Below the pieces are notes generated by a model. It was not told where the DNA came from. It made no database searches and saw only the letters and a program-made list of their open reading frames with translations. Position numbers and translations under genes: made by a program. Positions 20,243 to 55,400 of a DNA stretch of 64,000 nt are shown here, in pieces; the stretch's first letter is position 1; the number at the start of each line of letters is the position of its first letter. This DNA is from an uncultured bacterium (GTDB lineage Bacteria > Fidelibacterota > Marinisomatia > Marinisomatales > UBA1611): the NCBI GenBank assembly GCA_965660855.1, contig CBFIBM010000001.1:224001-288000 (forward strand). Reading direction: 5' to 3'.

Positions 20243-20330
20243 GGAGAGGTGGCCGAGTGGCTGAAGGCGCACGCTTGGAAAGCGTGTTTACGTTAATAGC
20301 GTAACGTGGGTTCGAATCCCACTCTCTCCG
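20243..20330 (+). tRNA. tRNA-Ser(GGA)
   Basis: GGAGAGG/CTCTCC acceptor, anticodon arm CACGC-TTGGAAA-GCGTG, long variable arm, GTTCGAATC; CCA not encoded. Confidence 0.95.
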
Positions 20331-24547: not shown

Positions 24548-24636
24548 GGAGGGGTGGCAGAGCCTGGCTGATTGCACTAGTCTTGAAAACTAGCAAGGGT
24601 TAATACCCTTCGGGGGTTCGAATCCCTCCCCCTCCG
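24548..24636 (+). tRNA. tRNA-Ser(TGA)
   Basis: GGAGGGG/CCCCTCC acceptor, anticodon arm CTAGT-CTTGAAA-ACTAG, long variable arm; CCA not encoded. Confidence 0.95.
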
Positions 24637-34097: not shown

Positions 34098-35231
34098 ATG
34101 AAAATACTTTTGTTAATTTTATTGTTAATGTCAAAAATTCAAGGACAGAAACTAGATGCAATTGACATTAATTTAAGAAACCTTAATGATGTCTTAGAAA
34201 CTGCACAAAGATCTTCTCAAAAAGTATTTGTTGACGATTTTACAGGCCTTTTGTGACCATACTGTCCCTCTGCGAGTTTCGCAATTTCAGAAATGTTAGA
34301 TTTATATCCAGAAACTTTGATTAGTGTCGAGTGGCACAGCTCAGGTTTTACTCCAGGAAATTCAGATTTTGATATACCAGCATATTCTACCAGGGCAGCG
34401 TTGTACAATGTAGGAGGTATTCCTCATACTCAATGGAATGGCGTTGTTTCAACTGTTGGTGGGTATCCAAATGGTAACTGGCAAGCCTTTATTGGAGAAT
34501 TTACAAATACCTATAATAGTATGGTTGGAGAAGAAACTCCATACAATATTGACATAAACGGTTACGCGGGTAATACTGTGAATTACGATGTTACGATTTC
34601 AATGGATTCTGATATGAGTAGCTCAAACCAGAAAGTTGATGTCTTCCTTGCTGAAGATAATATATGGTCTTATTGGAGCGGCGCAAGTTCATATCATAAT
34701 GCAAGATTTGTAGCAAGGGAATGGCTTTCTTCGGAGTATCTGAGTATCAGCAGTGCCGGCCAGAGTGAAACTTTTTCTGGTTCATTTGAATACAATGGAA
34801 ATTGGAATAGTGATAGCCTTTTTTTAATTGCTATTGTTCAAAACTATTCATCAAAACAAATTTATCAAGCCTCAAAAGTTAATATAAATGATATGGATCC
34901 GGATATTGATGATGATGGTATTTTGAATAATACTGATAATTGTATTGAAGATTACAATCCTCAGCAAGAAGATATTGATAACGATCAAATAGGTGATGCT
35001 TGCGATCCATGTAATAATTTAATTTATACTCTAGGCAACCCAAATGGTGATACAAATATCAATGGAGATCCCCTCATTGACATCATGGATGTCTTAACCC
35101 TTGTAGATTATCTTGCATTTGATCAAAATGAAAATATTTGCCAGGAACCAACTCTAAATATAAATCAAGATAATCATGTTAATATCGTTGATGTAATAAA
35201 TCTTGTTCAACTGATTCTTAATGGTGCATAA
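34098..35231 (+). CDS. Putative selenoprotein: signal peptide + Omp28-like thioredoxin fold (U53-P-Y-C) + TSP3 + dockerin-like domain, 377 aa
   Basis: Open frame from ATG 34098 (AGGA RBS): MKILLLILLLMSKIQGQ...KVFVDDFTGLL-TGA(34254)-PYCP, continuing in frame into track ORF 34293; hairpin 34271-34283. Confidence 0.85.
34271..34283 (+). promoter_or_regulatory. SECIS-like hairpin 1
   Basis: TGCGA-GTT-TCGCA; G-initiated loop 19 nt after TGA. Confidence 0.6.
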
Positions 35232-35733
35232 TTTCTTAATAAAACCACTATTAAAATTTGTTTTTTTTAGTTCAGTTTTCTTTTCTTTTGCTCTTGCAAA
35301 AAAAGTTCCTGATTTAAATATTAAACTTATTGATGGATCAAAGACTACAATTCTAGAGCTTGCAGAAGATGGTCCATTATTAATTGATTTTTGGGCAACT
35401 TGGTGTGTTCCATGCAAAAAAGTGATGAAACATTTAAATCAATTTCATCTAAAATATGATGATCAAAATTTTAAGGTTTTAATGATTAATACAGATAGTC
35501 CTAGGTCTTTTGGAAAAGTAAAATCATTTATAAGATCTCAAGATTATAAATTTTATGTAGGGTTAGATCCTAACCAAATTACAGCCAGAAAACTTGATGG
35601 ATTAGTTATGCCTACTCTTATTTTAGTTGATGCAGGTGGGGAAATAACTTGGAGACATCAAGGTTACTCACCAGGTGATGAAAAAGAAATTGAAAATCAG
35701 ATTGAATTATTACTAAGTAAAAATACTAAATGA
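35221..35733 (+). CDS. TlpA-family thiol:disulfide oxidoreductase
   Basis: Signal peptide, DFWATWCVPC, cis-Pro MPT. Confidence 0.9.
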   Translation: MVHNFLIKPLLKFVFFSSVFFSFALAKKVPDLNIKLIDGSKTTILELAEDGPLLIDFWATWCVPCKKVMKHLNQFHLKYDDQNFKVLMINTDSPRSFGKVKSFIRSQDYKFYVGLDPNQITARKLDGLVMPTLILVDAGGEITWRHQGYSPGDEKEIENQIELLLSKNTK

Positions 35734-37682
35734 TATCAAAATTATTTAGGCTTAGTAAGCTTATTTTTCTTTTATGTTTTTTAACAGCTCAAGACTTTAG
35801 TTATAACGCCTCTATTAATTCAAGTTTTGGAAATAGTTATGATTTTTATTCTTTTTCAGAAAATAGGATAAACATCAACTTATTTTACAATAACTTTCAA
35901 AGTTGGGTTCAATATGAATATTCAAACCCACCCGACGTAGGTTTTCCAATTAATGATATAAGAAAATTTCGATTTGAATATCAAAATAAAGCTTTAAATA
36001 TTAAACTTGGCGACATTTATGAAATTTGGGGTAGGGGTTTAGTTCTTAATCAATTCGATGATCAACTTTTAGATTTTGACAATGGAATAAGAGGACTTTT
36101 TATAAATTATGGTAAAGGTCCGTTTAGTTTAACACACATAAATGGTAATGCAAATTTATGGAGTTACGGTCTTGATTTAAGAAAACCATATTATAATGAT
36201 AAGCATAATGTTATAGCAAACAGACTCCTTTATGAAAAAGGTTCCACAGTATTAGGCTTGACACATTTGATTTCTAGTGAAGAGCATTCCAAGTTAAATT
36301 TAGATGTAGTAGATGTGGGGCATACAATTAAGGGTATTTACGGTGATTATTCTTCTAATAATTTTGATATTTTTTTAGAATATGTAGATAAGGTCTCAAT
36401 CTCTAAAAATATAGTTTCAAATAATTTTCCAAATGATACCCTCAAAACAGGGTATGGTTTATATGGTAATTTGAATTTTTACTTAGGATCTTGGGGTCTA
36501 ACTACCGAGTATAAAAATTATTCTTTTGATTCGTTTATTAGTGATAAAACTCCAGATGATTATGGAAATCAAATTCAATTTCAACAAATGCCAACTTTAG
36601 GTAAGGAGCATAATTCAACGCTACTTGGTAGACTTAGCCATTATTATAATTTTAATGATGAAAGAGGTGTACAGTATGAGTTAAATGGATCATTTATAGG
36701 ACTGTCAATTAACCTTCAATATGCTCATTTAAGTAGGAATGAACAATGGTTTTCACAAAATGGCCCGTTTTCTTGGACAAATAAGATTTTGAGATCAAAA
36801 TTACCTAGTACAAAAATTAATACTAACCCATACTATGAAAACTTCCAAGAATTAAGTGGCTATCTGTTTGAAGATAAACTCTTTTTTAAGATTGGCAGGG
36901 GAGCAAATAAAGAAGTTTTAGGAACAAATTGGTTTTTTAATGGGGTTCAAACAGACACCTCTTATAGTTTGAGTTTTGCTTATGATACAACCTATTCGCC
37001 ATATGCTCCTGATTATCCAATAATTACGGTTGATAGCCTATATGACACATCTTCTGTTAGTTATAATATAAAAGCAGAGAATTGGAGAGAGAGTCAATCT
37101 TTTACGATTCCTGTTGAATTAAATTATACTATGTCAAGTGGATACTCCTTCGGAGTTGGTTTTCAGTACCAGGAGAGAACTTTAAATGAAAAAAGAAAAG
37201 GAAATTCTCATTCATATAATGTTGGAAATTCAAAATGGAATTTAGTTAATCCAGATGATTCAGACTATAAATCTACTTTAATTATATCTCAACTCTCTAT
37301 AAATGGTAAACCTAGGAAAATCCAACATAATCGTCTATTATCATTTACTTTAAGTAAAGCGCAGAAATGGTCAGTTACTATTACACAAGATTGGACTGAT
37401 GCATATGAGGTCCAATCATCTGATCCTTATTATAATCCATTAGAGGCAATAGTATATGGTGATTTAAAATATTTTACTGGGAAAAGAAATAATGTTTCTC
37501 CTCCTTCATTTATTCAAAATAAATGGGTTTCGGCAGAAGTATCATATAACATTAATTCATCTCAAAAAGTTTCAATTTTTTATGGATCTATTCAAGGTGG
37601 CTTATTCTGTAATAATGGAATATGCAGAATTATACCTGCATTCAATGATGGTATAAAAGTTGGCTATTATTTCAGTTTATAA
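35730..37682 (+). CDS. DUF6029-like outer-membrane beta-barrel
   Basis: GDIYEIWGRGLVL, DNGIRG, EYKNY, C-terminal GGLFCNNGICRIIPAF and terminal amphipathic strand. Confidence 0.7.
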   Translation: MISKLFRLSKLIFLLCFLTAQDFSYNASINSSFGNSYDFYSFSENRININLFYNNFQSWVQYEYSNPPDVGFPINDIRKFRFEYQNKALNIKLGDIYEIWGRGLVLNQFDDQLLDFDNGIRGLFINYGKGPFSLTHINGNANLWSYGLDLRKPYYNDKHNVIANRLLYEKGSTVLGLTHLISSEEHSKLNLDVVDVGHTIKGIYGDYSSNNFDIFLEYVDKVSISKNIVSNNFPNDTLKTGYGLYGNLNFYLGSWGLTTEYKNYSFDSFISDKTPDDYGNQIQFQQMPTLGKEHNSTLLGRLSHYYNFNDERGVQYELNGSFIGLSINLQYAHLSRNEQWFSQNGPFSWTNKILRSKLPSTKINTNPYYENFQELSGYLFEDKLFFKIGRGANKEVLGTNWFFNGVQTDTSYSLSFAYDTTYSPYAPDYPIITVDSLYDTSSVSYNIKAENWRESQSFTIPVELNYTMSSGYSFGVGFQYQERTLNEKRKGNSHSYNVGNSKWNLVNPDDSDYKSTLIISQLSINGKPRKIQHNRLLSFTLSKAQKWSVTITQDWTDAYEVQSSDPYYNPLEAIVYGDLKYFTGKRNNVSPPSFIQNKWVSAEVSYNINSSQKVSIFYGSIQGGLFCNNGICRIIPAFNDGIKVGYYFSL

Positions 37683-37760: not shown

Positions 37761-38645
37761 GTGAAGAATTATATCTTAAGCATTCCTTTAGCAAAATTAA
37801 TTTTTATTCTATCTATTATTTTATCAAATACTATTTATCCTCAAATAGATATAGGTTCAATATCTCCTAATTTCACTGCTCCTGTATGCGCAAACGGTGA
37901 TCTCGAGTTATTCAACTTGTACCAACAAACTAATGGCAGTTTTAATGGTGGTGATTATAAAGTAGTATGGATCAATTTATTTACTTCTTGGTGACCAAGT
38001 TGCCAAGTGGAGGCTCCACTATCAGAAGAAATATGGCAAGAATATTTAAGCGGAGGGGAAGAAAAATTAGTTGTTATGGCAGCTGGGTTTGATTGGCATC
38101 AGCCTTATAGCTGTGAAGAATGGTCAACTGCATTTGGTATAACATACCTAATGGTAGATGATACAAATAATGAAGCATGGAATATTTATGGTGATGGCTA
38201 TATTCCGCATAATGTAGTGTTAGATCATAACATGCAGGTTCTATATACAAGTTCAGGATTTAACTCAAATGAAATAAAAGATGCAATCGATCTCGGCCTA
38301 TCTTATGTTCCAAGAGATTTAGATTTAGATGGAATTAATGATAACATAGATAACTGTGATGATATTTATAATCCTAATCAAGAGGATGTTGATGTAGATG
38401 GCATCGGTGATTTATGTGATAATTGCGATAACTATAATGTATTTATTTCTGGAAATACTGATGGTGGTTTAGTAAATGGAATTCCCATTTTAGATATTTT
38501 TGATGTGTTGAACCTAGTTGATATTGTTTTATTGGATGAATCTGGTACCTGTAGATCTGATATCTCAGATTTGAATTCAGATAATAATATTAATATTATT
38601 GATGTGATATTTCTTGTACAGGGGTTGTTAAATGGTGAATTTTAA
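37761..38645 (+). CDS. Putative selenoprotein: signal peptide + AhpC/TSA-TlpA-like fold (U78-P-S-C) + TSP3 + dockerin-like domain, 294 aa
   Basis: Track ORFs 37761-37994 and 38007-38645 are in frame, joined as LFTSW-TGA(37992)-PSCQVEAP; aligns with Cys paralogue IFTSWCGFCQTEA. Confidence 0.88.
38000..38039 (+). promoter_or_regulatory. SECIS-like hairpin 2
   Basis: AGTGGA-GGC-TCCACT (38006-38020), loop 17 nt after TGA; lower stem TTGCCA/TGGCAA. Confidence 0.7.
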
Positions 38646-38757
38646 ATTCAAAAACTTAGTTAAGATTTAAACAATAAAAAATATTACAATTTAACATTCA
38701 TAAATGTTGATGTTTTTAAAGATTTAGATTAGAATTTATATATATATTTCTACATTC

Positions 38758-41700
38758 ATGAATATTTTTAAAAAAATGACCTTCTTCCTTCTGTTTTTTT
38801 CCTTAATTAAAGGTCAAGGTGATTATTCATTTAAAAATATTTCAGTAGAAGATGGACTTGCTGAAAGTACTGTAAAGATAATCTATGAGTCAAAACAAGG
38901 TTTTTTATTTTTTGGAACTGAAAATGGTCTTGATATTTTTGATGGTTATAAATTTAAAAACTATCATATGGATTCATTCGATAATGAATCAATTCTTGGA
39001 AATAAAGTTTCAGCTATTTACGAATCAAGTAATAATTTGATCTGGGTAGGAAGTGAGCTAGGATTTAGTTCATTTAATCCTTCAACACAAAAATTCAAAA
39101 GACCGTCATTAAGTAATAATAATATTACAAATCCAGAAAAAATTACAGAAGATGAAAGTGGGAAAATCTGGATTAAAGAGGCTCAATCTAGCCGTTTATT
39201 TAAATATGATTTTAATAAAGATATTCTTGAATGTATTTCATGTGATCAAATGAGCATCCTTTTTAATCAAACCATAAATATTCTACACAAATCGAATAAA
39301 GGTGCTTTGTGGATTGGTACTGATAAAGGTCTTTATTTTTATGATATTAATGATAAATCTATCAGGCCGATTGAATCAAAATATTCCTTAAGCATTAATG
39401 AGCCATATTATATTACATCAATTGAAAATGGATCAGATTCCATTTTATGGATAGGAACAAAACAAGGTCTTATCAAAATTGAAGAAAATAATAAGAGTCA
39501 AATTAAGATTTTTAAGAATTCGGAGGTTGAAAATTCTATCGTTTCTAACAAGATAAATGATATTAAATGGGATAATCTTAGGAATGAGTTATGGATTTCT
39601 ACTGTGGATGGAATTTCAAAATATTCACCTGAACTAAATTCTTTTTCTAACATTCAAGTAGGTCCGTTTGCTAATAGCATAATAGAAAATGATGTTACGG
39701 ATATTTTGATTGCTGAAAAGTCTGGAACTTTATGGTTTAAAACCAGAAACCGCTTTGGAATAAATAGTTTTAAAGCAACATTCAATGAATTTGAGGGGCC
39801 GGATACTTCAATTATGCATTTTGAACATGATCCTATTGATCCATTTTCTATTGCTGACAATGATATAACAAATTTTATTGAGGATAGAGCTGGCCACGTC
39901 TGGATAGGAACACGACAAAATGGGATAAGCTTTTATTCATTTTTGAAGCCTAAATTCTCATTGCTTGAATATGATCAAGAAAATGAATGGGGCCTCAAAA
40001 GTAATAAGATTTATTCAATTACAACCGATTCTTATGGTATGATGTGGGTTGCAACAGGGTTTGGATTAGAAAATATTTCTTCGGATGGTATTAGAGATTT
40101 TGAATTTGAAAAATCTTTTATTGAATCCAACCATGTCATGGATTTAGAGTTAGTAAATGATCAATATTTATGGGCGGCAACTGAAAATGGAATTCTTAGA
40201 ATTGATGTATTATCAGAAGAAATTATTCGATTTAACACCTCTCAAAATGTTAATAAAAAAAGATTAATTTCTGATAATTTTATTAGAGACCTGCTTATAA
40301 CAAAAAATGGTTCTATTTGGGCGGGGACAAAATCAGGAATTACAATAATAGATACAGTTGATTTAAGTGCTGTCAGTTTTAGCTCAGATTTTACTGCTAG
40401 GGTATTATACCAAGACGAAAGTGAAAATATATGGATAGGAACAGATTATAATGGATTATATCAAATACCATATGAAATTATTTCTGATCTAAAAAAAGAA
40501 GATATTTTTGAAGTAGAGGGTCATGTTTTTGACTCAGAGTTTTCTGATGGTCTATCATCTTCACAAATAACCTCTATAACTCAAGATACGACTGGTGTTT
40601 TATGGGTTGGTACAGCTAGTGGTTTAAATAAGTATATTGAAAGTGAAGATACCTTCTATCATTATTTCATGAAAGATGGTCTACCTAGTAACTATATTAC
40701 GGGTGTTATTGTAGATCAAAGTAATAACCTGTGGATAAGCTCTAAGAACGGTATTTCTTTCTTTAATCAGAAAGACTCTTCTTTTATAAATTATGGGGTT
40801 TCCGATGGAATAGGGAATATTGATTTTCATCAACATTCTTTTGAAAAAAGTATTGATGGAAACATATATTTTGGTGGGCCAAAAGGAATAACTAAAGTAA
40901 ATCCCTCAAATTTACAATATAATGAATACAAACCTCCTTGTTCAATTCTACGCATTAAAAAAACACTTTATGATGGATCTATTACTGAAGTTTTTCCTCA
41001 AAAAAGTTCGAAACTAGAAATTCAAAAGATTAATATAAATCATAAAGTAAAATCATTCTCAATCGATTTTGTTGCTCTGAATTATCATAAAACTATAAAG
41101 AATGAATATAGATATAAACTTCAACCTTTTGATAGGAATTGGGTAGAATCGGGGAATATTAAATTTGCATCTTACAATAATTTAGGTAGAGGAGAGTATA
41201 CCTTTTTTGTGCAAGGATCTAACGATGATGGATTATGGAGTCAGTCTGCTGTTTTAGATTTTAAATTTATTCCTCATCCTCTTTTAAGTTATGGTGCTTT
41301 TGGAGTCTATCTTGCACTAATTATATTTGGTGTATACTGGCTAGTTAAACAAAGAATATTAAAACAGCAATCTGAGGCTGATGAAAAGAGAAGAGCCGAA
41401 GAATTAGAGCAAGCTCGGGAATTCCAGATGTCACTAATACCTCAAAATCCTCCTTCTATCAGCGGATTTGAATTTGCTTTGCATATGAAAACATCTACGG
41501 AGGTTGGTGGTGATTATTATGATTTTTTTCCTCAAAAAAATAATGTTCTTTATGTAGTTTGTGGTGACGCCACTGGGCACGGTTTAAATGCTGGTATGAT
41601 GGTTTCAATTACAAAAGCAGGATTATTCGGATCAGACTTTAGTAATCCAGGTATTACAACTACTAGGTTAAATCAAACAATAAAAGCTATTGATCTTGGA

Positions 41701-42105
41701 ACAACAAGGATGTCTTTGAATATGGCTAAGTTTGAAAATGAATCCTTTGAGTTTACATCAGCTGGTATGCCTCCTGCATATTTATTTCGTGGTGAAACAA
41801 AGGTTGTAGAGGAAATTTTAATTCCTGGTTTGCCTCTGGGGTCTATGAAAAATGCTACATTTGATTCTGAGATATTTGAATTTAAAATAGATGATGCGTT
41901 AATCTTAATTTCAGATGGACTTCCTGAATGTGTTGACCATAAAGATGAAATGTTAGATTATGATGCAGTAAAGAACTGTATTGAAAAAAATGGGCATAAA
42001 TCAGCAAATGGCATTAAAGATGCCTTGATAAAATTGGGTGATGACTGGATGGACGGTCTAATGAATGATGATGATATAACATTGGTAATTATAAAGAGGA
42101 AATAG
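38758..42105 (+). CDS. Membrane sensor phosphatase: two-component-regulator beta-propellers + Y_Y_Y + TM + SpoIIE/PP2C domain
   Basis: Repeated DxxGxLWIGT, YRYKL...ASYNNL..GEYTF, TM, EVGGDYYDF, GDATGHG, SDGLPE, DDITLV. Confidence 0.88.
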   Translation: MNIFKKMTFFLLFFSLIKGQGDYSFKNISVEDGLAESTVKIIYESKQGFLFFGTENGLDIFDGYKFKNYHMDSFDNESILGNKVSAIYESSNNLIWVGSELGFSSFNPSTQKFKRPSLSNNNITNPEKITEDESGKIWIKEAQSSRLFKYDFNKDILECISCDQMSILFNQTINILHKSNKGALWIGTDKGLYFYDINDKSIRPIESKYSLSINEPYYITSIENGSDSILWIGTKQGLIKIEENNKSQIKIFKNSEVENSIVSNKINDIKWDNLRNELWISTVDGISKYSPELNSFSNIQVGPFANSIIENDVTDILIAEKSGTLWFKTRNRFGINSFKATFNEFEGPDTSIMHFEHDPIDPFSIADNDITNFIEDRAGHVWIGTRQNGISFYSFLKPKFSLLEYDQENEWGLKSNKIYSITTDSYGMMWVATGFGLENISSDGIRDFEFEKSFIESNHVMDLELVNDQYLWAATENGILRIDVLSEEIIRFNTSQNVNKKRLISDNFIRDLLITKNGSIWAGTKSGITIIDTVDLSAVSFSSDFTARVLYQDESENIWIGTDYNGLYQIPYEIISDLKKEDIFEVEGHVFDSEFSDGLSSSQITSITQDTTGVLWVGTASGLNKYIESEDTFYHYFMKDGLPSNYITGVIVDQSNNLWISSKNGISFFNQKDSSFINYGVSDGIGNIDFHQHSFEKSIDGNIYFGGPKGITKVNPSNLQYNEYKPPCSILRIKKTLYDGSITEVFPQKSSKLEIQKININHKVKSFSIDFVALNYHKTIKNEYRYKLQPFDRNWVESGNIKFASYNNLGRGEYTFFVQGSNDDGLWSQSAVLDFKFIPHPLLSYGAFGVYLALIIFGVYWLVKQRILKQQSEADEKRRAEELEQAREFQMSLIPQNPPSISGFEFALHMKTSTEVGGDYYDFFPQKNNVLYVVCGDATGHGLNAGMMVSITKAGLFGSDFSNPGITTTRLNQTIKAIDLGTTRMSLNMAKFENESFEFTSAGMPPAYLFRGETKVVEEILIPGLPLGSMKNATFDSEIFEFKIDDALILISDGLPECVDHKDEMLDYDAVKNCIEKNGHKSANGIKDALIKLGDDWMDGLMNDDDITLVIIKRK

Positions 42106-42116
42106 GTTAAACTCTC

Positions 42117-42683
42117 ATGATAAAAAATACAATTAGAATAATCTATTTGCTTATGTTTCTTTCACTTGGATATTCTCAAGAAAAAATACCAAACTTGAGA
42201 CTTAAAATGTTGAATGGAAAATATGCAAAAGTAAATGATTTTTTAAAAGATGGACCAATGATTATAGATTTTTGGGCTACTTGGTGTGAGCCATGTAAGA
42301 AACAGATGAAATATCTTAATATATTTAATAATCATTTTAAGGAAACTGGATTTAAAGTACTTGCTGTTAACACTGATACACCTAAAAGTATGAGTAAGGT
42401 TAAATCTTATGTCAGAACAAAAAAGTTTGAGTTTGACGTTGCAGTGGACCCGAATAGTCAGGTTAAAAAGAAAATGAAGGTTTTGCAAATGCCTACAACT
42501 ATTTTAGTTGATAAAACTGGACAAATAGTTTTTAGACATCAAGGATATTTACCTGGCGATGAACATGATATTCTTCAAGCTATTTATGGTTTAATGGATA
42601 AAAACAATACTAGTTATGAAAAACTTGATTTGAATAAGAACAATAAAAAACAAATTAAATCCGGTGCTGAAGTTGATTTTTAA
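42117..42683 (+). CDS. TlpA-family thiol:disulfide oxidoreductase (paralogue of 35221)
   Basis: DGPMIIDFWATWCEPC, MPT, RHQGY. Confidence 0.9.
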   Translation: MIKNTIRIIYLLMFLSLGYSQEKIPNLRLKMLNGKYAKVNDFLKDGPMIIDFWATWCEPCKKQMKYLNIFNNHFKETGFKVLAVNTDTPKSMSKVKSYVRTKKFEFDVAVDPNSQVKKKMKVLQMPTTILVDKTGQIVFRHQGYLPGDEHDILQAIYGLMDKNNTSYEKLDLNKNNKKQIKSGAEVDF

Positions 42684-44946
42684 TAAGCAAATAATTGTAT
42701 CATTCATATTGATACTTAGTAATTCAGATTTATTTTCCCAAATAACAGCTGGTGGGAACTCTATTCTAAAATTTGGCGAGAGTAAAAATGAATTTCACTA
42801 TTCAGAGGTTTTGCTGAATATGAACTTATCAAATGATTATTTGGAGACTTGGTTTCAATTCGAATACAGCAAACCACCTGAGATTGGGATGAGTATTAAT
42901 GGTCTGAGAAAATTTAGGATTGACTATTCTGATGGCCCTTTCGAATTATCTGTTGGAGATATATATAAAATTTGGGGGAGGGGGTTAATATTGAACCAGT
43001 TTGATGATCAGGATGTAAATCTTGATAATGGTTATAGAGGATTAAGTTTCAGTATAATAAAAGATAACTATACCATTGATTTAATATCTGGAATTTCAAA
43101 TATACATAGAATTAGTCAAGATTACTGGCAAAATATAGATCAAGAATCAAGAAAGCCAAATCATTTATCAAAACATTCTATGTTTGGTAGTGATTTAGAG
43201 TTTTTTCAAGGACCTTTTTCTCTAGGTTTATCCTTTCTTCAAAGTAGAGAGAATCATCCCATCAATAATCCGATCACGATGATGGCAGATAGTATTAATG
43301 TAATTCATCGAATAAATGGTTTAAGAGCCGGATATGAAGGCGGGCGTCTCGCCTCCTACTTAGAATTATCTGGAAAAAATACGCTATTATCTCAATCCGA
43401 AAGTCAAATATATAAGGAAAATTTTAATCCTTATAATGGCTTCAGTCTTTTTGGAAATATTAATTATTATTTTCAAAGTCAGCTTCTAGACGGATGGTCA
43501 TTAACAATGGAGTATAAAAACTACAATACAACAAAATTAAATACATCAGATAAAGACAATTTTGTTAAAAATTATGATATGAATTTAATTTTTACTCAAC
43601 CCCCGACTGTTTTAAGGGAACATAGCAGTGTATTTTTAGCTAGACTTATTCCTCAGGTAAATTTCAGCGATGAAGTAGGTTATCAATTTTCTCTTGTTGG
43701 TCCTATTATGGGGATAGGGTATTTTACTCTCAACTATCAAGCCGCAAGTAGAACAAACTTATGGGGTAAAACATACCCAGATACTGTAAATGCTATATTA
43801 TCTACTAAATGGGAAAGTGATAGTGCAGTTACCGTATTGCCATTCAGTGAAAAATCCGGACTGCCATACAATGAACTTTATCTTGAAATGGAAGGTTACA
43901 TAAAAAATATTAGGTATCAATTTGGCTTTGGTATCACAAACAAAATACCTGAATATCATTCGTCGTATAATAGTGGAAAGAATGGTGTCTGGGATAATGG
44001 TGAAGCGTTTGATGATTTAAATGGCAATAATATTTATGATATTGGAGAAAATTTTACTGATCTTTACAGTATAGTAAATGAAAAAATTGATAATAAAACT
44101 GTTACAGCCATTACAATACCTTCTCTTCTAAATTATAATTTAGGAAATGGGTGGAGTATTGATTTAAAATATGAATTTCAAAAGATTAAAAGTGGTACAA
44201 AATATTATAATTCATTGTCCTCTGATGAAGTATTCTATGATAGTAATGGAAATGGTGTTTGGGATATTGCAGAGTTATTTGAAGATAGTAATGGTGATGG
44301 TATTTGGAACCAAGCTGAAGAGACATGGTATGATTTATGGCAAAGTGGTTTAATACCCGATGAACAATTATACTACTATGATACTGACGGCGATGGTTTA
44401 TTTTCGGAGGGAGAATATTTTACTGATGCTGATGGAAATGGCATGTGGAATTCATCAGAAAACTTAATTGATGAAGATGGTGATGGAATATGGGATGATT
44501 CAGAGTATTTGGAGGATCTAAATAATGATGGAGTCTGGACAAAAAGTGGAGTGTATGAAGATAGGTATCAATCTAATTTTTATTCAAATGATTCAAAAAG
44601 TGGGTTGAGTATTCCTGAAGATTTTCAAAATAATCATCTGATATCACTCGGAATAGGAAAATCGCCTTATTGGTCACTATCTTTAACGGTTGAATCAAGT
44701 TCAACCTATGAATATGGTCCATTAAAAAATAGTGTTGTTAATCCTCTAGAGAGTTTCTTAGGTAATATTATTGATTTAAATAATAAGTGGATTGCTTTAG
44801 AATTTATGGTGAATATAAATTCAAATACTAGGCTCGATTTAATGTACGGTACGCAAAGGGGAGGGATTATTTGCAGTAATGGAATTTGTAGGTATGTTGA
44901 ACCTTTCGATGATGGATTTAAATTAGCGTTATCAACAGTATTTTAA
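42664..44946 (+). CDS. DUF6029-like outer-membrane barrel with inserted Ca-binding-like DxNGDGxWD repeats
   Basis: GDIYKIWGRGLILNQFDDQ, C-terminal QRGGIICSNGICRYVEPF...TVF. Confidence 0.7.
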   Translation: MLKLIFNKQIIVSFILILSNSDLFSQITAGGNSILKFGESKNEFHYSEVLLNMNLSNDYLETWFQFEYSKPPEIGMSINGLRKFRIDYSDGPFELSVGDIYKIWGRGLILNQFDDQDVNLDNGYRGLSFSIIKDNYTIDLISGISNIHRISQDYWQNIDQESRKPNHLSKHSMFGSDLEFFQGPFSLGLSFLQSRENHPINNPITMMADSINVIHRINGLRAGYEGGRLASYLELSGKNTLLSQSESQIYKENFNPYNGFSLFGNINYYFQSQLLDGWSLTMEYKNYNTTKLNTSDKDNFVKNYDMNLIFTQPPTVLREHSSVFLARLIPQVNFSDEVGYQFSLVGPIMGIGYFTLNYQAASRTNLWGKTYPDTVNAILSTKWESDSAVTVLPFSEKSGLPYNELYLEMEGYIKNIRYQFGFGITNKIPEYHSSYNSGKNGVWDNGEAFDDLNGNNIYDIGENFTDLYSIVNEKIDNKTVTAITIPSLLNYNLGNGWSIDLKYEFQKIKSGTKYYNSLSSDEVFYDSNGNGVWDIAELFEDSNGDGIWNQAEETWYDLWQSGLIPDEQLYYYDTDGDGLFSEGEYFTDADGNGMWNSSENLIDEDGDGIWDDSEYLEDLNNDGVWTKSGVYEDRYQSNFYSNDSKSGLSIPEDFQNNHLISLGIGKSPYWSLSLTVESSSTYEYGPLKNSVVNPLESFLGNIIDLNNKWIALEFMVNINSNTRLDLMYGTQRGGIICSNGICRYVEPFDDGFKLALSTVF

Positions 44947-45015
44947 TCTAGCTTTTAATGAAAAATATCAATAAATTGAAAATAATTACATAACTTCAAT
45001 TAAAACAAAACTTAC

Positions 45016-45909
45016 ATGAAAAAATTCATTTTAAAGTTTTTTATTTTATTTTCTATAACATTTCCCTCATTTGTTATATGTCAGGGTCAAATTATACAAG
45101 ATTTTTCCTACCCAATTTGTGCTAATGGTGATGGTGAAACAGTTTTAAATTTTTATGAATCATTCAACGGATCAGTAAACAATTGTGAGTATAAAGTAGT
45201 TCTTGCTACACTTTTCACCTCCTGGTGACCATCCTGTATGACGGAGGCTCCGGTTCTAGAAGAAATATTTAACACCTACAAAGATCAAGGATTAGAAGTT
45301 GTTGCATTTGGAGCCGACTGGTATCCTGATGGACCCTATACTTGTGAAGGGTGGGATCAACAATTTAATCTTTCTTACCCAATACTTGATTTTGAGACAG
45401 GATTAGAAAATTGGTATTGGGAGTCAGCTCCGTATGATTTATACCAGCCCGAGTTAGGTTGGGGGTTACCTTTTAATGTAATAATAAATCATGAGATGGA
45501 AGTTTTATGGGGTGCAGCAGCCAACTTTGAGGGTGATGTAATGGCTGAGGCTATAGGTGTTATTGAATCAGCTCTCCAAGCGTTGAATGAAGAATTTCCC
45601 GATGGTCCAGGGGATGATGATGGAGATGGAATAGCAAATGGTTGTGATCCTTGTCCAGAATCTCATTTACACCATCCTGGAAATTTTGATTTTTCTCAGG
45701 TTTATTCACATTTTGATAATGGTGCAGTCTTTGTACCATCTGTAGATATTTTTGATTTAATACTATTTTCAGATTATATAATGGATGGTGGCTACCTAAC
45801 TGATTGTATCTTAGAGGCGCACGATATTACCGGGGATGGTTATGTCAATCCTTTCGATGTTATAGCATTAGCTCAATTAATTCTTGGAAATGATTGGGGT
45901 TTAAATTAG
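45016..45909 (+). CDS. Putative selenoprotein: signal peptide + AhpC/TSA-TlpA-like fold (U71-P-S-C) + TSP3-like + dockerin-like domain, 297 aa
   Basis: Track ORFs 45016-45228 and 45238-45909 are in frame, joined as LFTSW-TGA(45226)-PSCMTEAP. Confidence 0.88.
45242..45252 (+). promoter_or_regulatory. SECIS-like hairpin 3
   Basis: CGGA-GGC-TCCG, loop 17 nt after TGA; same GGAGGCTCC core as hairpin 2. Confidence 0.65.
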
Positions 45910-45931: not shown

Positions 45932-46855
45932 ATGAAATTATTTTATCATATTTTTCAGAAGAGTATTATTATTTTTGTTTTAATTTATACTTCTACCACT
46001 TCAGAAATGCAAGGTCAGGTAGCTGTAGGTGACACTATAAACCCTTCTCAATTAAGTTTACCAATTTGCGCTAATCAAGAACCCTTTGGCCCTTCAGAGC
46101 AATTTTTTGATATTTCGATTTATAATAACCCAGATCAAGATTCACAATCAAAAGTAATTTTACTTTCTATTTTTACATCATGGTGCGGATTTTGTCAAAC
46201 TGAAGCTACACACTTACAAGATTTACATACTGAATTTGCCGATGATGGATTGTTAGTTGTTTCAGCTGGAGGAGATTGGGGTTTTCCATATGATTGTGAG
46301 GGTTGGTCTAATGAATTTGATTTAAGTTATCCAATATTAGATTTTATGAATCCCTTTAATCCTAATTGGGGAGAAGCGCCATTAATGACCTATTTAGGAG
46401 TAGCTGCAATACCCTTTAATGTAATTATAGATCATAGGAACATAGTCTCAAATATTATAATAGGATATAATGAGGAAATATTGAACCTAGCTATTGAAGA
46501 TGCTCTTGAAGCAATGATTCAAGATAGTGATGGTGATGGAATTAATTCTGAAGCAGATAACTGTCCATCAATATTCAACCCAGGTCAATCTGATTTTGAC
46601 GGTGATGGCATAGGAGATGTCTGCGATGCTTGTGATAATCTTAATATATTTGTTAACGGAAATCTTAATGGTACATTAAATCTTGATCAAGAACCAACCA
46701 TTGATATTCTAGACTTATTGTTACTGGCCGACTTCCTTGAGGGATTACCAGATCAAAATATCTGTCATGAGGCTGCCTCTGATATTAATGAGGATTCTAA
46801 TATAAATTTACTTGATGTATTTTCACTTGCCTATCAAATTACTGGGCAAAATTAA
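45932..46855 (+). CDS. Secreted thioredoxin-fold protein (CGFC) + TSP3 + dockerin-like; Cys paralogue
   Basis: IFTSWCGFC; DSDGDGINSEADNC; IDILDLL and DINEDSNINLLDV. Confidence 0.85.
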   Translation: MKLFYHIFQKSIIIFVLIYTSTTSEMQGQVAVGDTINPSQLSLPICANQEPFGPSEQFFDISIYNNPDQDSQSKVILLSIFTSWCGFCQTEATHLQDLHTEFADDGLLVVSAGGDWGFPYDCEGWSNEFDLSYPILDFMNPFNPNWGEAPLMTYLGVAAIPFNVIIDHRNIVSNIIIGYNEEILNLAIEDALEAMIQDSDGDGINSEADNCPSIFNPGQSDFDGDGIGDVCDACDNLNIFVNGNLNGTLNLDQEPTIDILDLLLLADFLEGLPDQNICHEAASDINEDSNINLLDVFSLAYQITGQN

Positions 46856-47001: not shown

Positions 47002-47916
47002 TTGTTAAAAAAAAATTTTAAAAAAATAAATTACCTCAAAGTATTTACAATACTTTTATTGCAATCATTATTATATAGTCAAATTGCAATTGGTGATACT
47101 GTCTTTAATCTGCAATTACCAATATGTGCTAATTCTGATCCTGATATTCACGAACAGCAATATTTTGATATAAATGATTATAATGGTTTTCCCGAAAGTA
47201 CTATCAGCCCAAGGGTAATTCTTCTTGCAATCTTTACTTCATGGTGTGCGTATTGTCAAACTGAAGCGTTCCTTTTAGAAGATTTACATGAGGAGTATAT
47301 TGATGATGGATTATTGGTCCTTTCTGCTGGTGGTGATTGGGGCTTCCCATATGATTGTAGTGGTTGGGCAAATTCATTTAATTTAACTCATCCAATATTA
47401 AATTTTATGACAACTAATGTGGAAAGTTGGGAAGATGCTCAATTGATAAACTATTTGGGAGTTGGTATTGTACCACATGCTGTTGTAATTGATCATCGAA
47501 ATATTCTTTCAAACACCATTGTGGGTTATAATCCTAATGCTTTGAATCAAGCTGTTGAAAGTGCGCTTGAAACAATGGCTCAAGACCTTGATGGTGATGG
47601 AGTTTTATTTGATGATGATAATTGTCCTTCAATTCATAACCCAGAACAAATAGATATTGACAATGATAACCTTGGTGATGAATGTGATTTATGTGATAAT
47701 CTTAATAATTTTGTAATTGGCAATCTAAATGGTACACTAGATCAATTTCAGCAAGCAACCATTGATATTTTTGATTTATTGTTATTAACTGATTTTTTAG
47801 ATAATTCTTACGAGAATAATGTATGCTCTAACGCTGTATCCGATATTAATGGTGATAATTCTATAGATCTAATTGACGTATTTACGCTTGCTTATATTAT
47901 TTCAGAACAAAATTAA
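47002..47916 (+). CDS. Secreted thioredoxin-fold protein (CAYC) + TSP3 + dockerin-like; Cys paralogue
   Basis: IFTSWCAYC; DLDGDGVLFDDDNC; DINGDNSIDLIDV; close paralogue of 45932. Confidence 0.85.
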   Translation: MLKKNFKKINYLKVFTILLLQSLLYSQIAIGDTVFNLQLPICANSDPDIHEQQYFDINDYNGFPESTISPRVILLAIFTSWCAYCQTEAFLLEDLHEEYIDDGLLVLSAGGDWGFPYDCSGWANSFNLTHPILNFMTTNVESWEDAQLINYLGVGIVPHAVVIDHRNILSNTIVGYNPNALNQAVESALETMAQDLDGDGVLFDDDNCPSIHNPEQIDIDNDNLGDECDLCDNLNNFVIGNLNGTLDQFQQATIDIFDLLLLTDFLDNSYENNVCSNAVSDINGDNSIDLIDVFTLAYIISEQN

Positions 47917-49413: not shown

Positions 49414-52400
49414 ATGTATAAATCATATAATTCTAAGTATTTATCTGTCGTATTATTCCTGTTTTTTCAGTCGGGTTTGATATTTGGACAAGCTATTGAT
49501 TTTTATCCTGCTGGTCAAGTAGCAGATGGTGATAATATTTACAATATTAATTCAACAGTTGCAACTAATGGTCCTTTTTCTGGGTCAAATGCCGGTGGAG
49601 TATGGGTAACGGGATCAAGTCTTGAATACACTTCATGGGATGTTCAAATACAATTTGATGGTGGGGCGTTTACTACTATAAACGGTGATGGTTCAAATGA
49701 TGATAATGCCTCTGCTAATGGGCAAAGTTTTGGAAGTGCAACTGTTCGCCCAACTGCTGATGGTGATCTTAATATCTGGTTTAGTCATGCAGAGATTGCG
49801 GCCACCTCAGGTTATCCTGGAACTGTTGATGGGATTAACATCTCATTTAGAATAAGAAAAGTAAGTGATGGTAGTACATTACCAACTTCGCCACAAGATT
49901 ATGCCTTTGATTTAGTTGCTCCGACTCTTACTTCTGCCAGTATAGCTTCAGATAACGATAATACAAGTTGGGCTAAGTCTGGCGACAATATTACCATAAC
50001 GTTAACTGCACCAAGTGGAAGTGACGGAGAAAATTTAGGTACCTCAGATCAATGGTCAACATCAATTCAGGGTCTTGGTGCTTCTGTATCAGGTTCAGGG
50101 CTTGTTTGGACTGTCTCAGCAACTGTAAGTAGTCATCCGGAAGGGACTGTTTATTTTCAAATAACATATTACGATGCATATGAAAACCCAGGAACTGTAC
50201 TAACCGCTGTAGTGGGAAATACTTCACAAGTAATAATAGATAAGACTCCCCCTAATATTTCAGCTACAATTCTATCAGATGATAATACAAATAATACACA
50301 ATATTTAGCGACTACTGGTGACGACGTTACTTTAACAATTACTGCAACTGATGATGATGGAGGTGCAGAGATTATTCAAGTTCCAACCGTAACTATTGAC
50401 GGAAATACTCCTACTGGAAGTAATCTTTCTGTTCCAGCTAGTTCCTACACTGCTTACAGAACGATGCAAGCAGGTGATACGCAAGGAGATGTTGGCTTTG
50501 CAATTACTGGTATAAAAGATAGAGCCGGTAATACGGCTACCAATGTAACTGCTGTTACATCTGGTAGTAATGTTCGGTTTGATTCAGCTGTTCCAACAAT
50601 AAATTCTCTCACAGTTGCATCAAATAACGCCATTGCGAGTAATAAAGCTACCATAGGAGATGTTATAACTATTTCCTTTGCATCAACTGGTAATGAATCT
50701 TTACAAACTCCTGTTGTTACTATCGATGGTGAAGATGCGCTTGAGCAACAAAATGGGAATGCTTATACTTGGACAGCAACAAAAACAATGGATGCGGAAG
50801 ATACGGAGCGACTTACGCAGTTCTCATTGAATTTTAAAGATTTAGCTGCTAACAGTGGTACCGCTTTAGATCATGGTGATATTACAGCTGGTACACTTGT
50901 TGATTTTGACGCAACGCCTCCAACAATTAATTCGGAAACTGCTTCCACCACAAATTCCTACGATAACACGCTAGCAATTTTAAATCAGGTCATCTCTATT
51001 GATATTGTAAGTGCTGAAGAACTCTATAGTATTAAGGATGTTCTTATCGCAGGGAAAGCGGTAGCTGATCAAGTGACTGCAGCAACAAATGTAACAGATT
51101 GGACTATAAATCATGTAGTGGATGGTACGGAAGCGGATGGGTATGTTGGTTATTCTTACACAGCTGTTGATTTAGCTGGAAATGAGACAAATGTAGTTAA
51201 ATCAAGTAGTAGTATTCGTATCGATAACTCAAAACCAGTGCTAAATACAGTTACCATTATTTCAAATAATACAAATACTGCTTACGCAAAAATTGGTGAT
51301 GTTGCTACGATAAATATTGTTGCAAATGAGGCTCTCCGCATTAGCCCTGTTGTTTCGATTCAAGGGAGAACTGCGACTATCGCTGCTGCAGGAGATGGCA
51401 TCACCTTTACAGCAACTCATACCTTTGATAATACTGATACTGAAGGTCTCGTAGCTTTTCAAATTGATTTTGAAAATGCTTTTGGACTTGCTGGAGACAG
51501 AATTATTGATGATGGTACAGGTTCCACAACTAATAATGGCGCAACCGTAAGGTTTGATAGAACAGCTCCTACATTAAACCCTGTTACTGTAACATCAAAT
51601 AATAATAATTCTTCATATGCGAAAGTAGGTGATATTGTTACGTTATCTTTTACTTCTATTGAAGCGATTCAAGATCCACCAACAGTCGTTTTCCTAAGCA
51701 CACCGGGAGATAATCGAGCTGGGACTGTTTCTGGAAGTGGTACAAGTTGGAATGCAACATATACTATGCAAAACTCTGATACAGAGGGAGATGTTGATTT
51801 TTACATTGATTTTGTTGATATCGCGGGGAATACGGGTGTAAGAGAAACAAGTCTTTCATCTGGAAGTGAAATTATTTTTGATCGTGATATACCCGAACTC
51901 ACAACTGTAGATATATCCTCGAGTAATGCAAATCCAGCTCTATCAAAAGTTGGTGATGTTATAACCTTAGCTATTACTTCAGATGAAGATATTCAGATAC
52001 CGACTGTTACTATTGCAGGAACCACAATAGCTAGTGAAAATATTACCGGTAATGATGGTGAAAGAAACTTCACAGCTACATATACGATGCAAAGCTCAGA
52101 CAATACAACAGCTGCTATTGGTTTTACAATTGATTTTGCAGATCTTGCAAATAATTTAGGAACTCAAAAAACAGCTATAGTAAATGATGGAGATGGACTT
52201 GGAGTTGGTTTTGACAAACAGGCGCCAGGTTTAAATATTGTTACTATACTTTCGAATAATGATAATAGAGCAGGAACAGGAAATAAAACTGGTTTAGCAA
52301 TAGTAAATGATATCATCACTTTAAACTTTGAGTCAGACGAAGATTTAAAAACTGGAGTGACTCCGGCTGTCCTTATTGCGGGAAATGCTGCAACGGTTGT

Positions 52401-55400
52401 TCGTAATGCAAATAATGATTTTACTGCCACTTATCAAATGGCATCAGATGATGACACAGATGGAGCTAATATTACTATTTCTATTTCTAACCTTGTTGAC
52501 CCATCTGGGAATACTCCTGCTAGTGCAATAACAACAACTACTGATGGTTCGTATGTTAAATTTGATAAAACAAACCCAATCTTGGGTTCTATTACTATTG
52601 CATCTAATAATTTAAATAATACACTTGCTATCGAGGGTCAAGTTGTTACATTGACTTTTGCATCTAGTGAAGATATCGGAACACCAACTGTGAATATCTT
52701 GGGTGGTGCTGCTACAGTTACTAATGTTGCAGACTCAAGTAATTGGGTTGCCACAAAAACTGTTGGTGGCGCTGATAGCGAGGGTGTAGTAGGATTTAGT
52801 ATTGCTTATTCTGATAAGGCAGGAAATAACGGAACGACGAGAACTGATTTAACAGGCGGAGGTGATCCTGTTACTGTTGATCTAACAGTACCTCAAATTA
52901 CCAAAGCTTCTATAGCTACAAATAATTCCACAGGCGATGAATTATCGGTTCCTGGTGATGTCGTAACTCTTGAAATAGAGACCTCAGAGGCTATTCAGAC
53001 ACCGACTGTTACTATTGCCACACAAACAGCTACTGTAAGTCAAGGTGCAGATGCATTAACGTGGACAGCCACATACGCGATGACAACAAATGAATCAAAT
53101 GGAGCAGTTCCTTTCGCAATTGATTTTACGGATCTTTCCGGAAACCAAGGAAATGGTGGGGCTTCCTATACCGCCTTACTAAATGACGATGATGGAAACT
53201 CTGTCAGTTTTGATAAAACTCAGCCAGAGTTAGATTATGTAAATATACAATCAGATAATACTTTGCCTGCTTATGCTAGAGTTGGATCTGAAGTAACTTT
53301 AGGGTTCGAGTCTAACGAAGCATTAAGCTCATATGCTGTAACTATTAATGGAAATACAGTTGCAGTTTCTTATGATGCTGTTGCAGATAGATATAGCGCT
53401 GCATATACCTTAGTTGACGGAGATTCGGAAGGGGATGTTACGTTTACAATTGATTATACAGATTTAAATGGTTATCAGGGCGTTCAGCAAACGGAAACTT
53501 TAGATGATTCTAATGTAGAGTTTGATAAAACTCCTCCACAGATGGATGTACTCACTTATTCTTCAAATAATGCAAATATGACATCAATGGCAAAAGAAGG
53601 AGATGTTATTACTGTAAATCTTGAAGCGGATGAAAATTTACAATCTCCAACTATTACCCTAGCAGGAAATGCTAGCGGAACTCCAGTTGTTGGAGGTACA
53701 AATGCTATTTGGAGTTCGGCTTACACTGTTCCATCTCTGTCTGATGGTGTTGTTGCATTGCAAGTTGATTTTAAAGATTATGCAGGTAATTCTGGTACTA
53801 GGCAGGTTGCGCCGTTGACAGGATCTGCTGTGACCTATGATGGTACTGCTCCGACACTTGGAACAGTAACCTTTGTAAGTAATAATAGCTATTCAACTGC
53901 AAAAGCAAAATTATTTGATGAGGTAACTCTTACAATTGCTGCAGATGAAAGCATTCAAACACCAACTATTACAATTTCAGGGACTTCTATAACTCCAACG
54001 ATGGGACTAAATTCTGAAAATTGGGTTGCTACATACATTTTACAAGAATCCGACGCAGAAATAGATATTCCATTTACTGTAGATTTTAATGATTTAGCTG
54101 ATAACGCTGGAACTCAAGTAATTGCTACTACCGGTGGTGAGGTCGTTAATTATGATAATACAGCTCCTGTAACTACCGGACTTGTTGTTGATTTGAAAGA
54201 TGCATCGGACACAGGGTTATCAAATAGCGATAATATCACAACTGTTTTAACTCCTACATTTGAAATTCAAAATTTAACATCAGGTCCTGCTTCTGCGACA
54301 GGAGAGAAGTTAATTCTTAATATTAATGGCACGGACTATGATTCTCTGACAATCACTGTTAATGCAATGAGTATATCTGTCCCTGATGCAACCCCGCTTA
54401 CAAATAATGTACTTCCCTATACGGTGACAGCATATATAAGAGATCTTGCTGGTAATTTATCTCTTGCATCCACATCCTCTATTTCATTAACAATTGATAC
54501 TGAAGCACCATTAACAAATGCTGAAATAAATCTTGTTGATGGGTCAGACTCCGGATCTGATAATGCTGATAATATTACAAGTGACAATACGCCCACTTTA
54601 GAAGTGAATGGATTAGCTGATGGAGAGATTTATACTGTTATTGTTGAATATGATCTTGAAGGTGGTGCATCTGACCAAGTAGTTGTTAATGATCTTATGA
54701 GTCAAGCAGTAACGGATCAATTTACTACAACCGCATTAAGTGATGGGGTTTATACTTTTACGTATAAATTGGTAGATACAGCGGGAAATACTTCATTGGA
54801 AAGTGATCCTCTTGCAGTAACAATTGACCGAACACAACCTGCAATATCAAGCGCTCCTGATCTTGTTGATGTGTTTGATACAGGTACTCTAGATAGCGAT
54901 AATCTTACAAATCTCGAAAATCTTCAATTTAGTGTATCAAATTTAGTTGTGGGTGAAACCTTAACAATATATAACGATGCTGATGATAGTGTCTTAGGTA
55001 GCAAAACAATAACAGCAGTAACAGAGACTATTACGATAAATGGTTTTACGGAAGGTGCACATACTGTTTACGCACGACTAACAGATTTAGCAGGAAACCA
55101 GTGTGGTGAATCTGGAGCACTTAGTTTTACTGTAGATATAACTGCAATCGATGTTACTGGTATTACTCTCGATCTAAATACTGCAGATGACTCTGGTACT
55201 AGGTCTGATGACGATCTTACAAATATTAACACACCAACTTTTACATTAGCAACGGTCTCTATTAATGATATCGTACATCTTTACGCAGATGGCAGTTTAG
55301 TTGGTTCAGCAACTTCTATTGGATCATCAGTTGAGGTAACAAGTAGCACGCTAGTTGATAATCCGTATGAAATGAGTTTTACCGTGACAGATTATGCTGG

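Follow-up and report, generated by a model that had tools for sequence, protein, structure and literature searches.

Thiol-disulfide oxidoreductases of the ResA, TlpA, and DsbE (CcmG) type, two selenoprotein families, NF045500 (Omp28-related selenoprotein) and NF041054 (ResA-like WAxxUGC motif-containing protein), and the E. coli fdhF-type selenocysteine insertion sequence (SECIS) are the described systems closest to the gene analyzed here. The family itself appears in the Global Ocean Sampling (GOS) survey, where Table 2 lists 225 selenoproteins as Prx-like 1 (pfam00578, motif UxxC, where U is selenocysteine, Sec) and Dataset S1 holds 19 sequences with the motif FTSWUPSC (Zhang and Gladyshev, 2008; PMC2398784). 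We analyzed a 64,000-nucleotide stretch of DNA (the window; contig CBFIBM010000001.1, positions 224,001 to 288,000) from an uncultured bacterium of the Marinisomatales (Marinimicrobia/SAR406), in which a gene at 45016–45909 carries an in-frame TGA at the codon for the first residue of its redox motif. The gene adds a member to a selenoprotein family that is already known. We hold with high confidence that its product is a true selenoprotein, a putatively exported thiol-disulfide oxidoreductase of the ResA/TlpA/DsbE type that has a thioredoxin fold and Sec as the attacking residue; the U state is likely ancestral. The case draws on the conserved UGA column, a covarying hairpin, the Sec machinery of the genome, purifying selection, the protein fold, and contigs from RNA libraries that run across the TGA. 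That the gene is recoded is a small surprise, because the selenoprotein status of the family has been in print since 2008.

In the sampled parts of Dataset S1, FTSWUPSC entries and the heading "#Prx-like 1" both occur near part 27 and the heading "#Prx-like 2" occurs near part 31, and this file position places the entries, by inference, in the Prx-like 1 block. Membership in Prx-like 2 was rejected, since the motif is another one in the first sequence listed there. Among the entries displayed, the text of one read is identical to the protein of locus L061, and two others, compared by eye and not by alignment, are orthologues of the 45016 subfamily (very close to locus L024) and of a further paralogue of the window's genome (L022). 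The accessible text of PMC2398784 yielded no description of the C-terminal tail, the gene neighborhood, the hairpin, or the organism of this subfamily, and its figure S1 may treat the fused tail. Likewise, the literature consulted yielded no description of an architecture with thrombospondin type-3, dockerin-like, and type IX sorting modules, of a covarying hairpin encoded by Glu-Ala-Pro codons, of the three-gene cassette described below, or of Sec and Cys copies side by side; nothing on this family in work on Marinimicrobia/SAR406 selenoproteins; and no relevant paper on selenoproteins with type IX secretion system (T9SS) or Omp28 domains. In the accessible portion of Peng (2016), SAR406 single-cell genomes are named in a table only.

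The in-frame TGA and its place in the family

Read with TGA as Sec, 45016–45909 is a single uninterrupted frame containing one TGA and the motif LFTSW-U-PSC, and the redox center of its product, U71-x-x-C74, lies inside the thioredoxin-fold domain. The gene, its parts, and its paralogues in the window are as follows (TSP3, thrombospondin type-3 repeat).

45016–45909, + strand: predicted selenoprotein gene, 297 codons plus a TAG stop at 45907–45909
45016–45084, + strand: probable signal peptide, MKKFILKFFILFSITFPSFVICQ, judged by composition; the equivalent leaders of homologues end in ..AQ
45226–45228, + strand: in-frame TGA, predicted Sec codon (residue 71), in the column where the Cys paralogues have the first Cys of CxxC
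45240–45254, + strand: SECIS-like hairpin, stem 45242–45245/45249–45252 (CGGA/UCCG), loop GGC
45601–45906, + strand: C-terminal tail, a degenerate TSP3-like Asp-rich loop, DDDGDGIANGCDPC, and a dockerin-like helical pair
37761–38645, + strand: other U paralogue of the window, its only TGA at 37992–37994 (residue 78, LFTSW-U-PSC), hairpin at 38006–38020
45932–46855, + strand: Cys paralogue, FTSWCGFC, no hairpin at the equivalent place
47002–47916, + strand: Cys paralogue, FTSWCAYC, no hairpin at the equivalent place

Under translation table 11, the region yields two open reading frames (ORFs), one of 70 residues and one of 223 residues that has an ATG at 45238. Gene callers cut genes of this kind in two or shorten them at the TGA. 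Annotated correctly, the gene would yield an envelope redox enzyme of full length in SAR406, which ranks among the most abundant of the dark ocean's uncultured lineages.

The earlier note, made from the sequence of this stretch, had held that the TGA falls at the same column as that of the 37761 gene in an otherwise clearly diverged protein, and that a recoded UGA inherited by both genes explains this more simply than two independent nonsense mutations. A four-way alignment bears out the shared column, which is also that of the first Cys of FTSWCGFC and FTSWCAYC, and CCA directly follows both TGAs, as the note had said. The divergence is equally real: the 45016 product is 37–41% identical to the other three paralogues. 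A fifth paralogue (L022, FATW-U-GGC), on the same contig outside the window, has a TGA at the same column, and the genome holds three U and two C members of the family in total, so that Sec and Cys versions of the same enzyme are seen side by side in one genome. The two tandem Cys paralogues are 58% identical to each other and lack both the GAG codon and the hairpin considered below. With a Cys paralogue as the query, none of 40 related genomes yielded a Cys orthologue; the best matches outside the genome were U forms with 37–44% identity.

The shared column extends well beyond chance agreement of two genes. A protein search of the 40 related genomes plus the window's own genome (full-length matches defined as covering at least 260 query residues) returned matches in 34 of the 41 genomes, with matches spanning residues ≈5–294 of the 45016 product. 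Each of the 20 full-length matches from other genomes contains one TGA and no more, and in every full-length match extracted it stands at the redox column. Frameshifts or extra stops in orthologues, which would speak against recoding, were absent from these 20 matches, where any other TGA is a terminal stop. One partial match (L045) has an internal TAG and may be broken. A scan of one genome per species with a nine-sequence alignment as the query added 47 loci, mostly from Marinimicrobia; a pattern search with the single protein gave 84 pattern matches, none of which was confirmed. Across 57 distinct proteins, the column aligned with the Cys or Sec of homologues has 53 U and 4 C. A few of the loci are in records titled as KSB1, Calditrichota, Deferribacteres, Lentisphaeria, Cytophagia, or Bacteroidaceae metagenome-assembled genomes (MAGs), most with W-U-x-x-C. 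One of these, the Bacteroidaceae-titled L097, has two tandem genes of ≈570–590 residues with W-U-P-[SG]-C followed downstream by ACC GAG UUU CCG GUG, and the SECIS of these genes may differ from the family core.

The genome, which is ≈84% complete, encodes the machinery for Sec decoding. Adjacent selB (303 bits) and selA (494 bits) genes occupy one contig; selD scores 389 bits (L008, contig C19, 7427–8353) and is probably a selenoprotein gene itself, since it contains one in-frame TGA; and a tRNA-Sec, on a different contig from the window, scores 63 bits and is called tRNA-SeC with anticodon TCA by ARAGORN. All four are above curated cut-offs. Two matches to the tRNA-Sec model inside the window, at 24548–24635 (45 bits) and 20243–20329 (32.7 bits), both on the + strand, are below the gathering score of 47 and are probably long-arm tRNAs such as those for Ser or Leu. 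TGA terminates 8 of the 32 long ORFs of the window and several of the orthologues, and the code is therefore not globally reassigned.

In Pfam, the 45016 product has borderline matches to AhpC-TSA (PF00578; 26.2 bits against a gathering score of 26) and to Thioredoxin (23.6 against 23.5); Redoxin (22.1 bits, cut-off 26.6) and Thioredoxin_8 fall below their cut-offs, and Dockerin_1 is weak. No NCBIfam model exceeds its cut-off: the best thioredoxin-type match is ResA at 35.7 bits, and because the cut-off is 170 the product is not a ResA orthologue, and DsbE and TlpA score 20.9 of 123 and 20.8 of 230 bits, respectively. An AlphaFold (AF2) model from a 53-sequence alignment (confidence score pLDDT of 81) has a thioredoxin fold; after it come an Asp-rich linker modeled with low confidence, a beta-hairpin, and three helices. 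Its best Foldseek matches in the PDB are DsbE, ResA, CcmG, and TlpA structures (3gl3, 1su9, 2b1k, and 4txo; target-normalized TM-scores of 0.63–0.82). W70, U71, C74, E77, and P152 are invariant across the family, and P152 is at the cis-Pro position; C35, Y108, C110, and W113 are invariant in a 22-row alignment and at least 90% conserved in a 53-row alignment. The fold, the family matches, and the leader lead us to interpret the product as a Sec-dependent thiol-disulfide oxidoreductase that is exported. A peroxiredoxin (peroxidase) reading was rejected on account of the W-U-x-x-C motif and of ResA and TlpA as the best folds.

The tails of the paralogues match TSP3 repeats strongly (E = 1e-32), and that of the 45016 product is degenerate and weakly dockerin-like. 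Most relatives are ≈500 residues long, with ends that resemble a T9SS sorting domain (..K[AK]xLLxK), and the one long homologue scanned (L026) is above the cut-offs of the T9SS tail models. The 45016 product and its nearest relatives end after the dockerin-like part, and neither Pfam nor NCBIfam gave a match of the 45016 product to the T9SS C-terminal sorting domain (Por_Secre_tail/TIGR04183).

A hairpin downstream of the TGA

The hairpin at 45240–45254 lies in codons for Thr-Glu-Ala-Pro-Val, starting 13 nt after the TGA, and has an outer G-U pair (45240/45254) past an A-G mismatch. As the earlier note had proposed, both window genes share its core, GGAGGCUCC, which starts 15 nt after the A of the TGA in each; the likeness holds for the core, but the hairpin of the 45016 gene is the weakest among the three U paralogues of the genome.

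The 57 distinct U-form contexts align gap-free as TGA NNN NNN TGY NNN NNG GAG GCU CCN. In a seven-pair helix around the GGC loop, 85.7% of the cells pair, compared to 71.8% in column shuffles, none of 500 of which reached as high a value, and pairing falls to 19–47% when the 3' side is shifted by one to three columns. The pair flanking the invariant core (23–33) is C-G in 46 U forms, U-A in 9, G-C in 1, and broken in 1, and the next two pairs outward show many double changes. RNAalifold returns the same stem at 6 bp. A covarying stem-loop of 6–7 bp is found at the level of the family, and it is not significant for the 45016 gene taken singly. The A-G mismatch of this gene at pair 22–34 recurs in five other family sequences.

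GAG, the minor Glu codon here (24%), is used in all 57 U forms, and GAA is used in 4 of 4 Cys forms; the 45016 gene moreover uses CCG, which makes up 8% of Pro codons. The window's two Cys genes, the only Cys forms folded, have no structure at the equivalent place (0 kcal/mol). The short hairpin would be a compact, family-specific SECIS, which could serve to find and annotate more members.

Ancestry, selection, and competing explanations

A maximum-likelihood tree of the thioredoxin domain was built with the redox column masked. It comprises 53 rows of the family, rooted with a TlpA-like outgroup, and excludes four rows that are long or contain several domains (L085, L087, and both L097 genes). 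Mapping U and C states onto it, as the earlier note had suggested, gave U in 49 of the 53 rows, including basal rows from other phyla. The 45016 gene is sister to L024, a U gene of another genus (support 100/99), and the two Cys genes of the window form the sister group of this pair (98/82). The 37761 gene lies in a separate all-U clade next to its same-genus orthologue (99/82), and a third U clade contains the fifth paralogue. The window's Cys paralogues nest within U clades, and the Cys state requires at least three changes on the tree. The simplest history, and a likely one, is an ancestral Sec that was replaced by Cys before the tandem Cys pair arose by duplication; the direction is likely and not proven, because the tree is rooted through a single outgroup branch of great length.

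Both sides of the TGA are under purifying selection. Ratios of nonsynonymous to synonymous substitution rates (dN/dS; Nei-Gojobori), computed separately for each side, were ≈0.07–0.23 overall. The two closest family pairs, with dS of 0.36–0.65, gave 0.16–0.19 upstream and 0.07 downstream, and the closer family pairs used as backing gave 0.06–0.21; the downstream values ranged over 0.06–0.20. TGA aligned with TGA in 9 of 9 U-form pairs tested. In addition, metatranscriptome contigs from four libraries, which belong to four studies, run through both the TGA and the hairpin without a difference in either; the strain-level differences in the coding sequence number 14, of which 8 are synonymous, with no indels. 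The tree, the selection, the intact relatives, and the Sec machinery together favor the inherited UGA of the earlier note over two independent nonsense mutations.

Several points weigh against the reading of the 45016 gene as a Sec-decoding gene for an exported oxidoreductase. Its hairpin has a stem of 4 bp and folds at -3.8 kcal/mol, which 64 of 200 shuffles equaled, and the other two U paralogues fold at -6.7 (37761 gene, 6 bp) and -7.0 kcal/mol; its 60- and 85-nt contexts do no better than shuffles (z-scores of +0.77 and +1.36). It is therefore the family, not this gene by itself, that supplies the RNA evidence. Even in the family, only the synonymous positions and the flanking pairs count as independent RNA evidence, because the core coincides with conserved Glu-Ala-Pro. 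An Rfam scan of 37900–45400 (E up to 10) returned no SECIS family and only five chance-level matches. The dN/dS of the gene with its L024 orthologue (0.15 upstream and 0.20 downstream) is rough because dS is saturated (2.2–2.6). The RNA-library contigs indicate presence rather than level of expression, with carry-over of DNA possible. Finally, it is from the nucleotide sequence that we infer Sec incorporation at residue 71, and the fold and the leader are what suggest the export of the product, its substrates, and the direction of its redox reaction.

Among the competing explanations, the one that retains the most is that the 45016 gene is a decaying copy, in which a former Sec codon now mostly terminates translation to leave a 70-residue fragment on its way to loss or conversion to Cys. 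The weakness of the hairpin noted above would fit this, as would the degenerate TSP3 region relative to the paralogues, the occurrence of an orthologue of the subfamily in just 1 of the 40 relatives (G004), and the adjacent sister genes that have already switched to Cys. However, the 217 codons downstream of the TGA are conserved with the G004 orthologue (49% identity, dN/dS ≈0.2), strain variants in that part comprise 6 synonymous and 6 nonsynonymous changes and include neither stops nor indels, the gene has kept its core GGAGGCUCC and its rare CCG codon, and the A-G mismatch is common to other members of the family. We regard decay as improbable.

Less probable still is that one of the standard amino acids is inserted at the TGA, for instance Trp or Gly by a reassigned code or Cys by near-cognate read-through. 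An open frame with TGA as sense cannot by itself tell which residue is inserted, and the paralogues indicate that Cys is functionally acceptable at the site; but TGA serves as an ordinary stop elsewhere in the window and in orthologues, the genome retains selA, selB, selD, and tRNA-Sec, and the covarying hairpin follows the TGA in U forms only. An ordinary nonsense mutation or sequencing error, which would leave a pseudogene or two unrelated ORFs (45016–45228 and 45238–45909) as table 11 reads them, has next to no chance of being correct, given the recurrence of this TGA at one column across many genomes (57 distinct sequences), its retention in contigs of independent runs, the purifying selection on both of its sides, and the Gln, Ala, or Trp that homologues have at the position of Met75, where none has a start codon.

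On the preferred explanation, recoding of an inherited Sec codon, SelB carrying Sec-tRNA(Sec) would bind the short hairpin 13 nt downstream, which is built from the family-conserved Glu-Ala-Pro codons (GAG GCU CCN), and the UGA at 45226–45228 would be recoded co-translationally. The U state would be inherited, and the two tandem Cys copies most likely arose by replacement of Sec with Cys. After export, the Sec/Cys pair may reduce or isomerize the disulfides, or other oxidized sulfur or selenium species, of envelope or surface substrates, and the TSP3/dockerin-like tail, putatively Ca-binding, probably tethers the protein.

Gene neighborhood and comparison with known systems

The 45016 gene is the third gene of the second of two similar cassettes in the window. 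Cassette 2 has the order TlpA-like gene, DUF6029 gene, 45016 Sec-redoxin gene, and then the two Cys paralogues. The neighboring genes are as follows.

34098–35231, + strand: Omp28-related selenoprotein NF045500, full-length (562.6 bits, cut-off 200), heading cassette 1
≈35245–35739, + strand: TlpA-like Cys thioredoxin of cassette 1
35730–37682, + strand: DUF6029 protein of cassette 1, followed by the Sec-redoxin gene at 37761–38645
42117–42683, + strand: TlpA/ResA-like Cys thioredoxin, WATWCEPC, first gene of cassette 2
42664–44946, + strand: DUF6029 protein, putative outer-membrane beta-barrel, directly upstream of the 45016 gene

The gene at 34098–35231 is the third selenoprotein gene of the window, with a TGA at about residue 53 (nt 34254–34256, GLL-U-PYC) and a TSP3/dockerin-like tail. 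Between the cassettes, 38758–42105 (+ strand) encodes a protein of 1115 residues with Reg_prop/Y_Y_Y beta-propeller repeats and a SpoIIE (PP2C) phosphatase domain. Downstream, a 4247-residue ORF at 49414–62157 (+ strand) ends in ..KNKKMMLLK, like the T9SS domains of the ≈500-residue homologues, and its product is presumably a giant surface protein.

The order TlpA-like, DUF6029, Sec-redoxin recurs at loci L055, L058, L064–L066, L069, L071, L073–L076, L078, L080–L082, L086, L088, and L089, and the order Sec-redoxin, TlpA-like, DUF6029 occurs at L095 (KSB1-titled) and L092 ("Deferribacteres"-titled). The neighborhoods were counted for 59 distinct genes of the family, each with 400 nt or more of sequence upstream: a DUF6029 gene ends within 300 nt upstream on the same strand in 32 and lies within 2 kb upstream in 38; it is downstream, after the TlpA-like gene, in 2 of the 59, both from other phyla, and in 19 the flanking DNA covered holds no DUF6029 gene. 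These counts are not independent, because the genes are kin.

The DUF6029 proteins share an invariant C-x2-G-x-C ≈20 residues from an aromatic C-terminus (C627, G630, and C632 in the first copy). The second copy, at 42664–44946, has an insert of ≈110 residues of Asp-rich, DxDGDG-like repeats, which suggests Ca-binding loops. In the excerpt available of one paper, DUF6029 is tied by HHpred to Wzi-like outer-membrane barrels (polysaccharide porins). It is possible, though we put it forward only tentatively, that the three genes form a conserved and previously undescribed envelope redox module, in which a periplasmic TlpA-like Cys reductase and a DUF6029 barrel would act with a Sec-redoxin that bears a T9SS domain in most relatives; such a module would recur in Marinimicrobia and, with a different gene order, in KSB1-, Calditrichota-, Deferribacteres-, and Cytophagia-titled MAGs. 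If so, it would be an undescribed route by which abundant marine bacteria carry thiol/selenol redox chemistry to their outer membrane or across it, and the T9SS-tailed Sec-redoxins would sit on the cell surface. The recurrent cassette offers a testable hint to the function of DUF6029 and of a surface-exposed selenoenzyme.

Compared to known systems, the hairpin is closest to the fdhF-type SECIS of E. coli, which consists minimally of an upper stem-loop ≈11 nt after the UGA with SelB-bound G residues in its apical loop. The two are alike in lying within the coding sequence 10–13 nt after the UGA and in having GG in the apical loop and a covarying stem. The family hairpin differs in being shorter, with 4–7 bp and a 3-nt GGC or 5-nt AGGCU loop, and in that we identified no bulged U in it.

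At the level of the protein, the 45016 product resembles NF041054 in being a ResA-like selenoprotein with Sec in the redox motif, but its motif is UxxC rather than UGC and its match is marginal (15.6 bits, cut-off 300). With NF045500 it shares the C-terminal TSP3 and dockerin-like module (profile positions about 250–377), of which its tail matches the last ≈80 positions (296–376; 44 bits, cut-off 200), a match confined to the tail; the N-terminal domain is Omp28-like in NF045500 and thioredoxin-like here. The likeness to ResA, TlpA, and DsbE (CcmG) takes in the thioredoxin fold, W-[C/U]-x-x-C, the N-terminal export leader, and the invariant Pro152. Unlike those proteins, the 45016 product has its first Cys replaced by Sec and possesses, in addition, a second conserved pair of Cys residues (C35/C110) and a TSP3/dockerin-like tail, and the cassette of its gene has no link to cytochrome c maturation genes. 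With the Prx-like 1 set of the GOS survey, as far as its table and dataset are accessible, the 45016 product shares the UxxC motif and a weak AhpC-TSA/Redoxin signal in Pfam; that set is a broad bin, which also takes in unrelated-looking WUPYC and WUPHC proteins, and the fold of the 45016 product is nearer to ResA and TlpA than to the peroxiredoxins.

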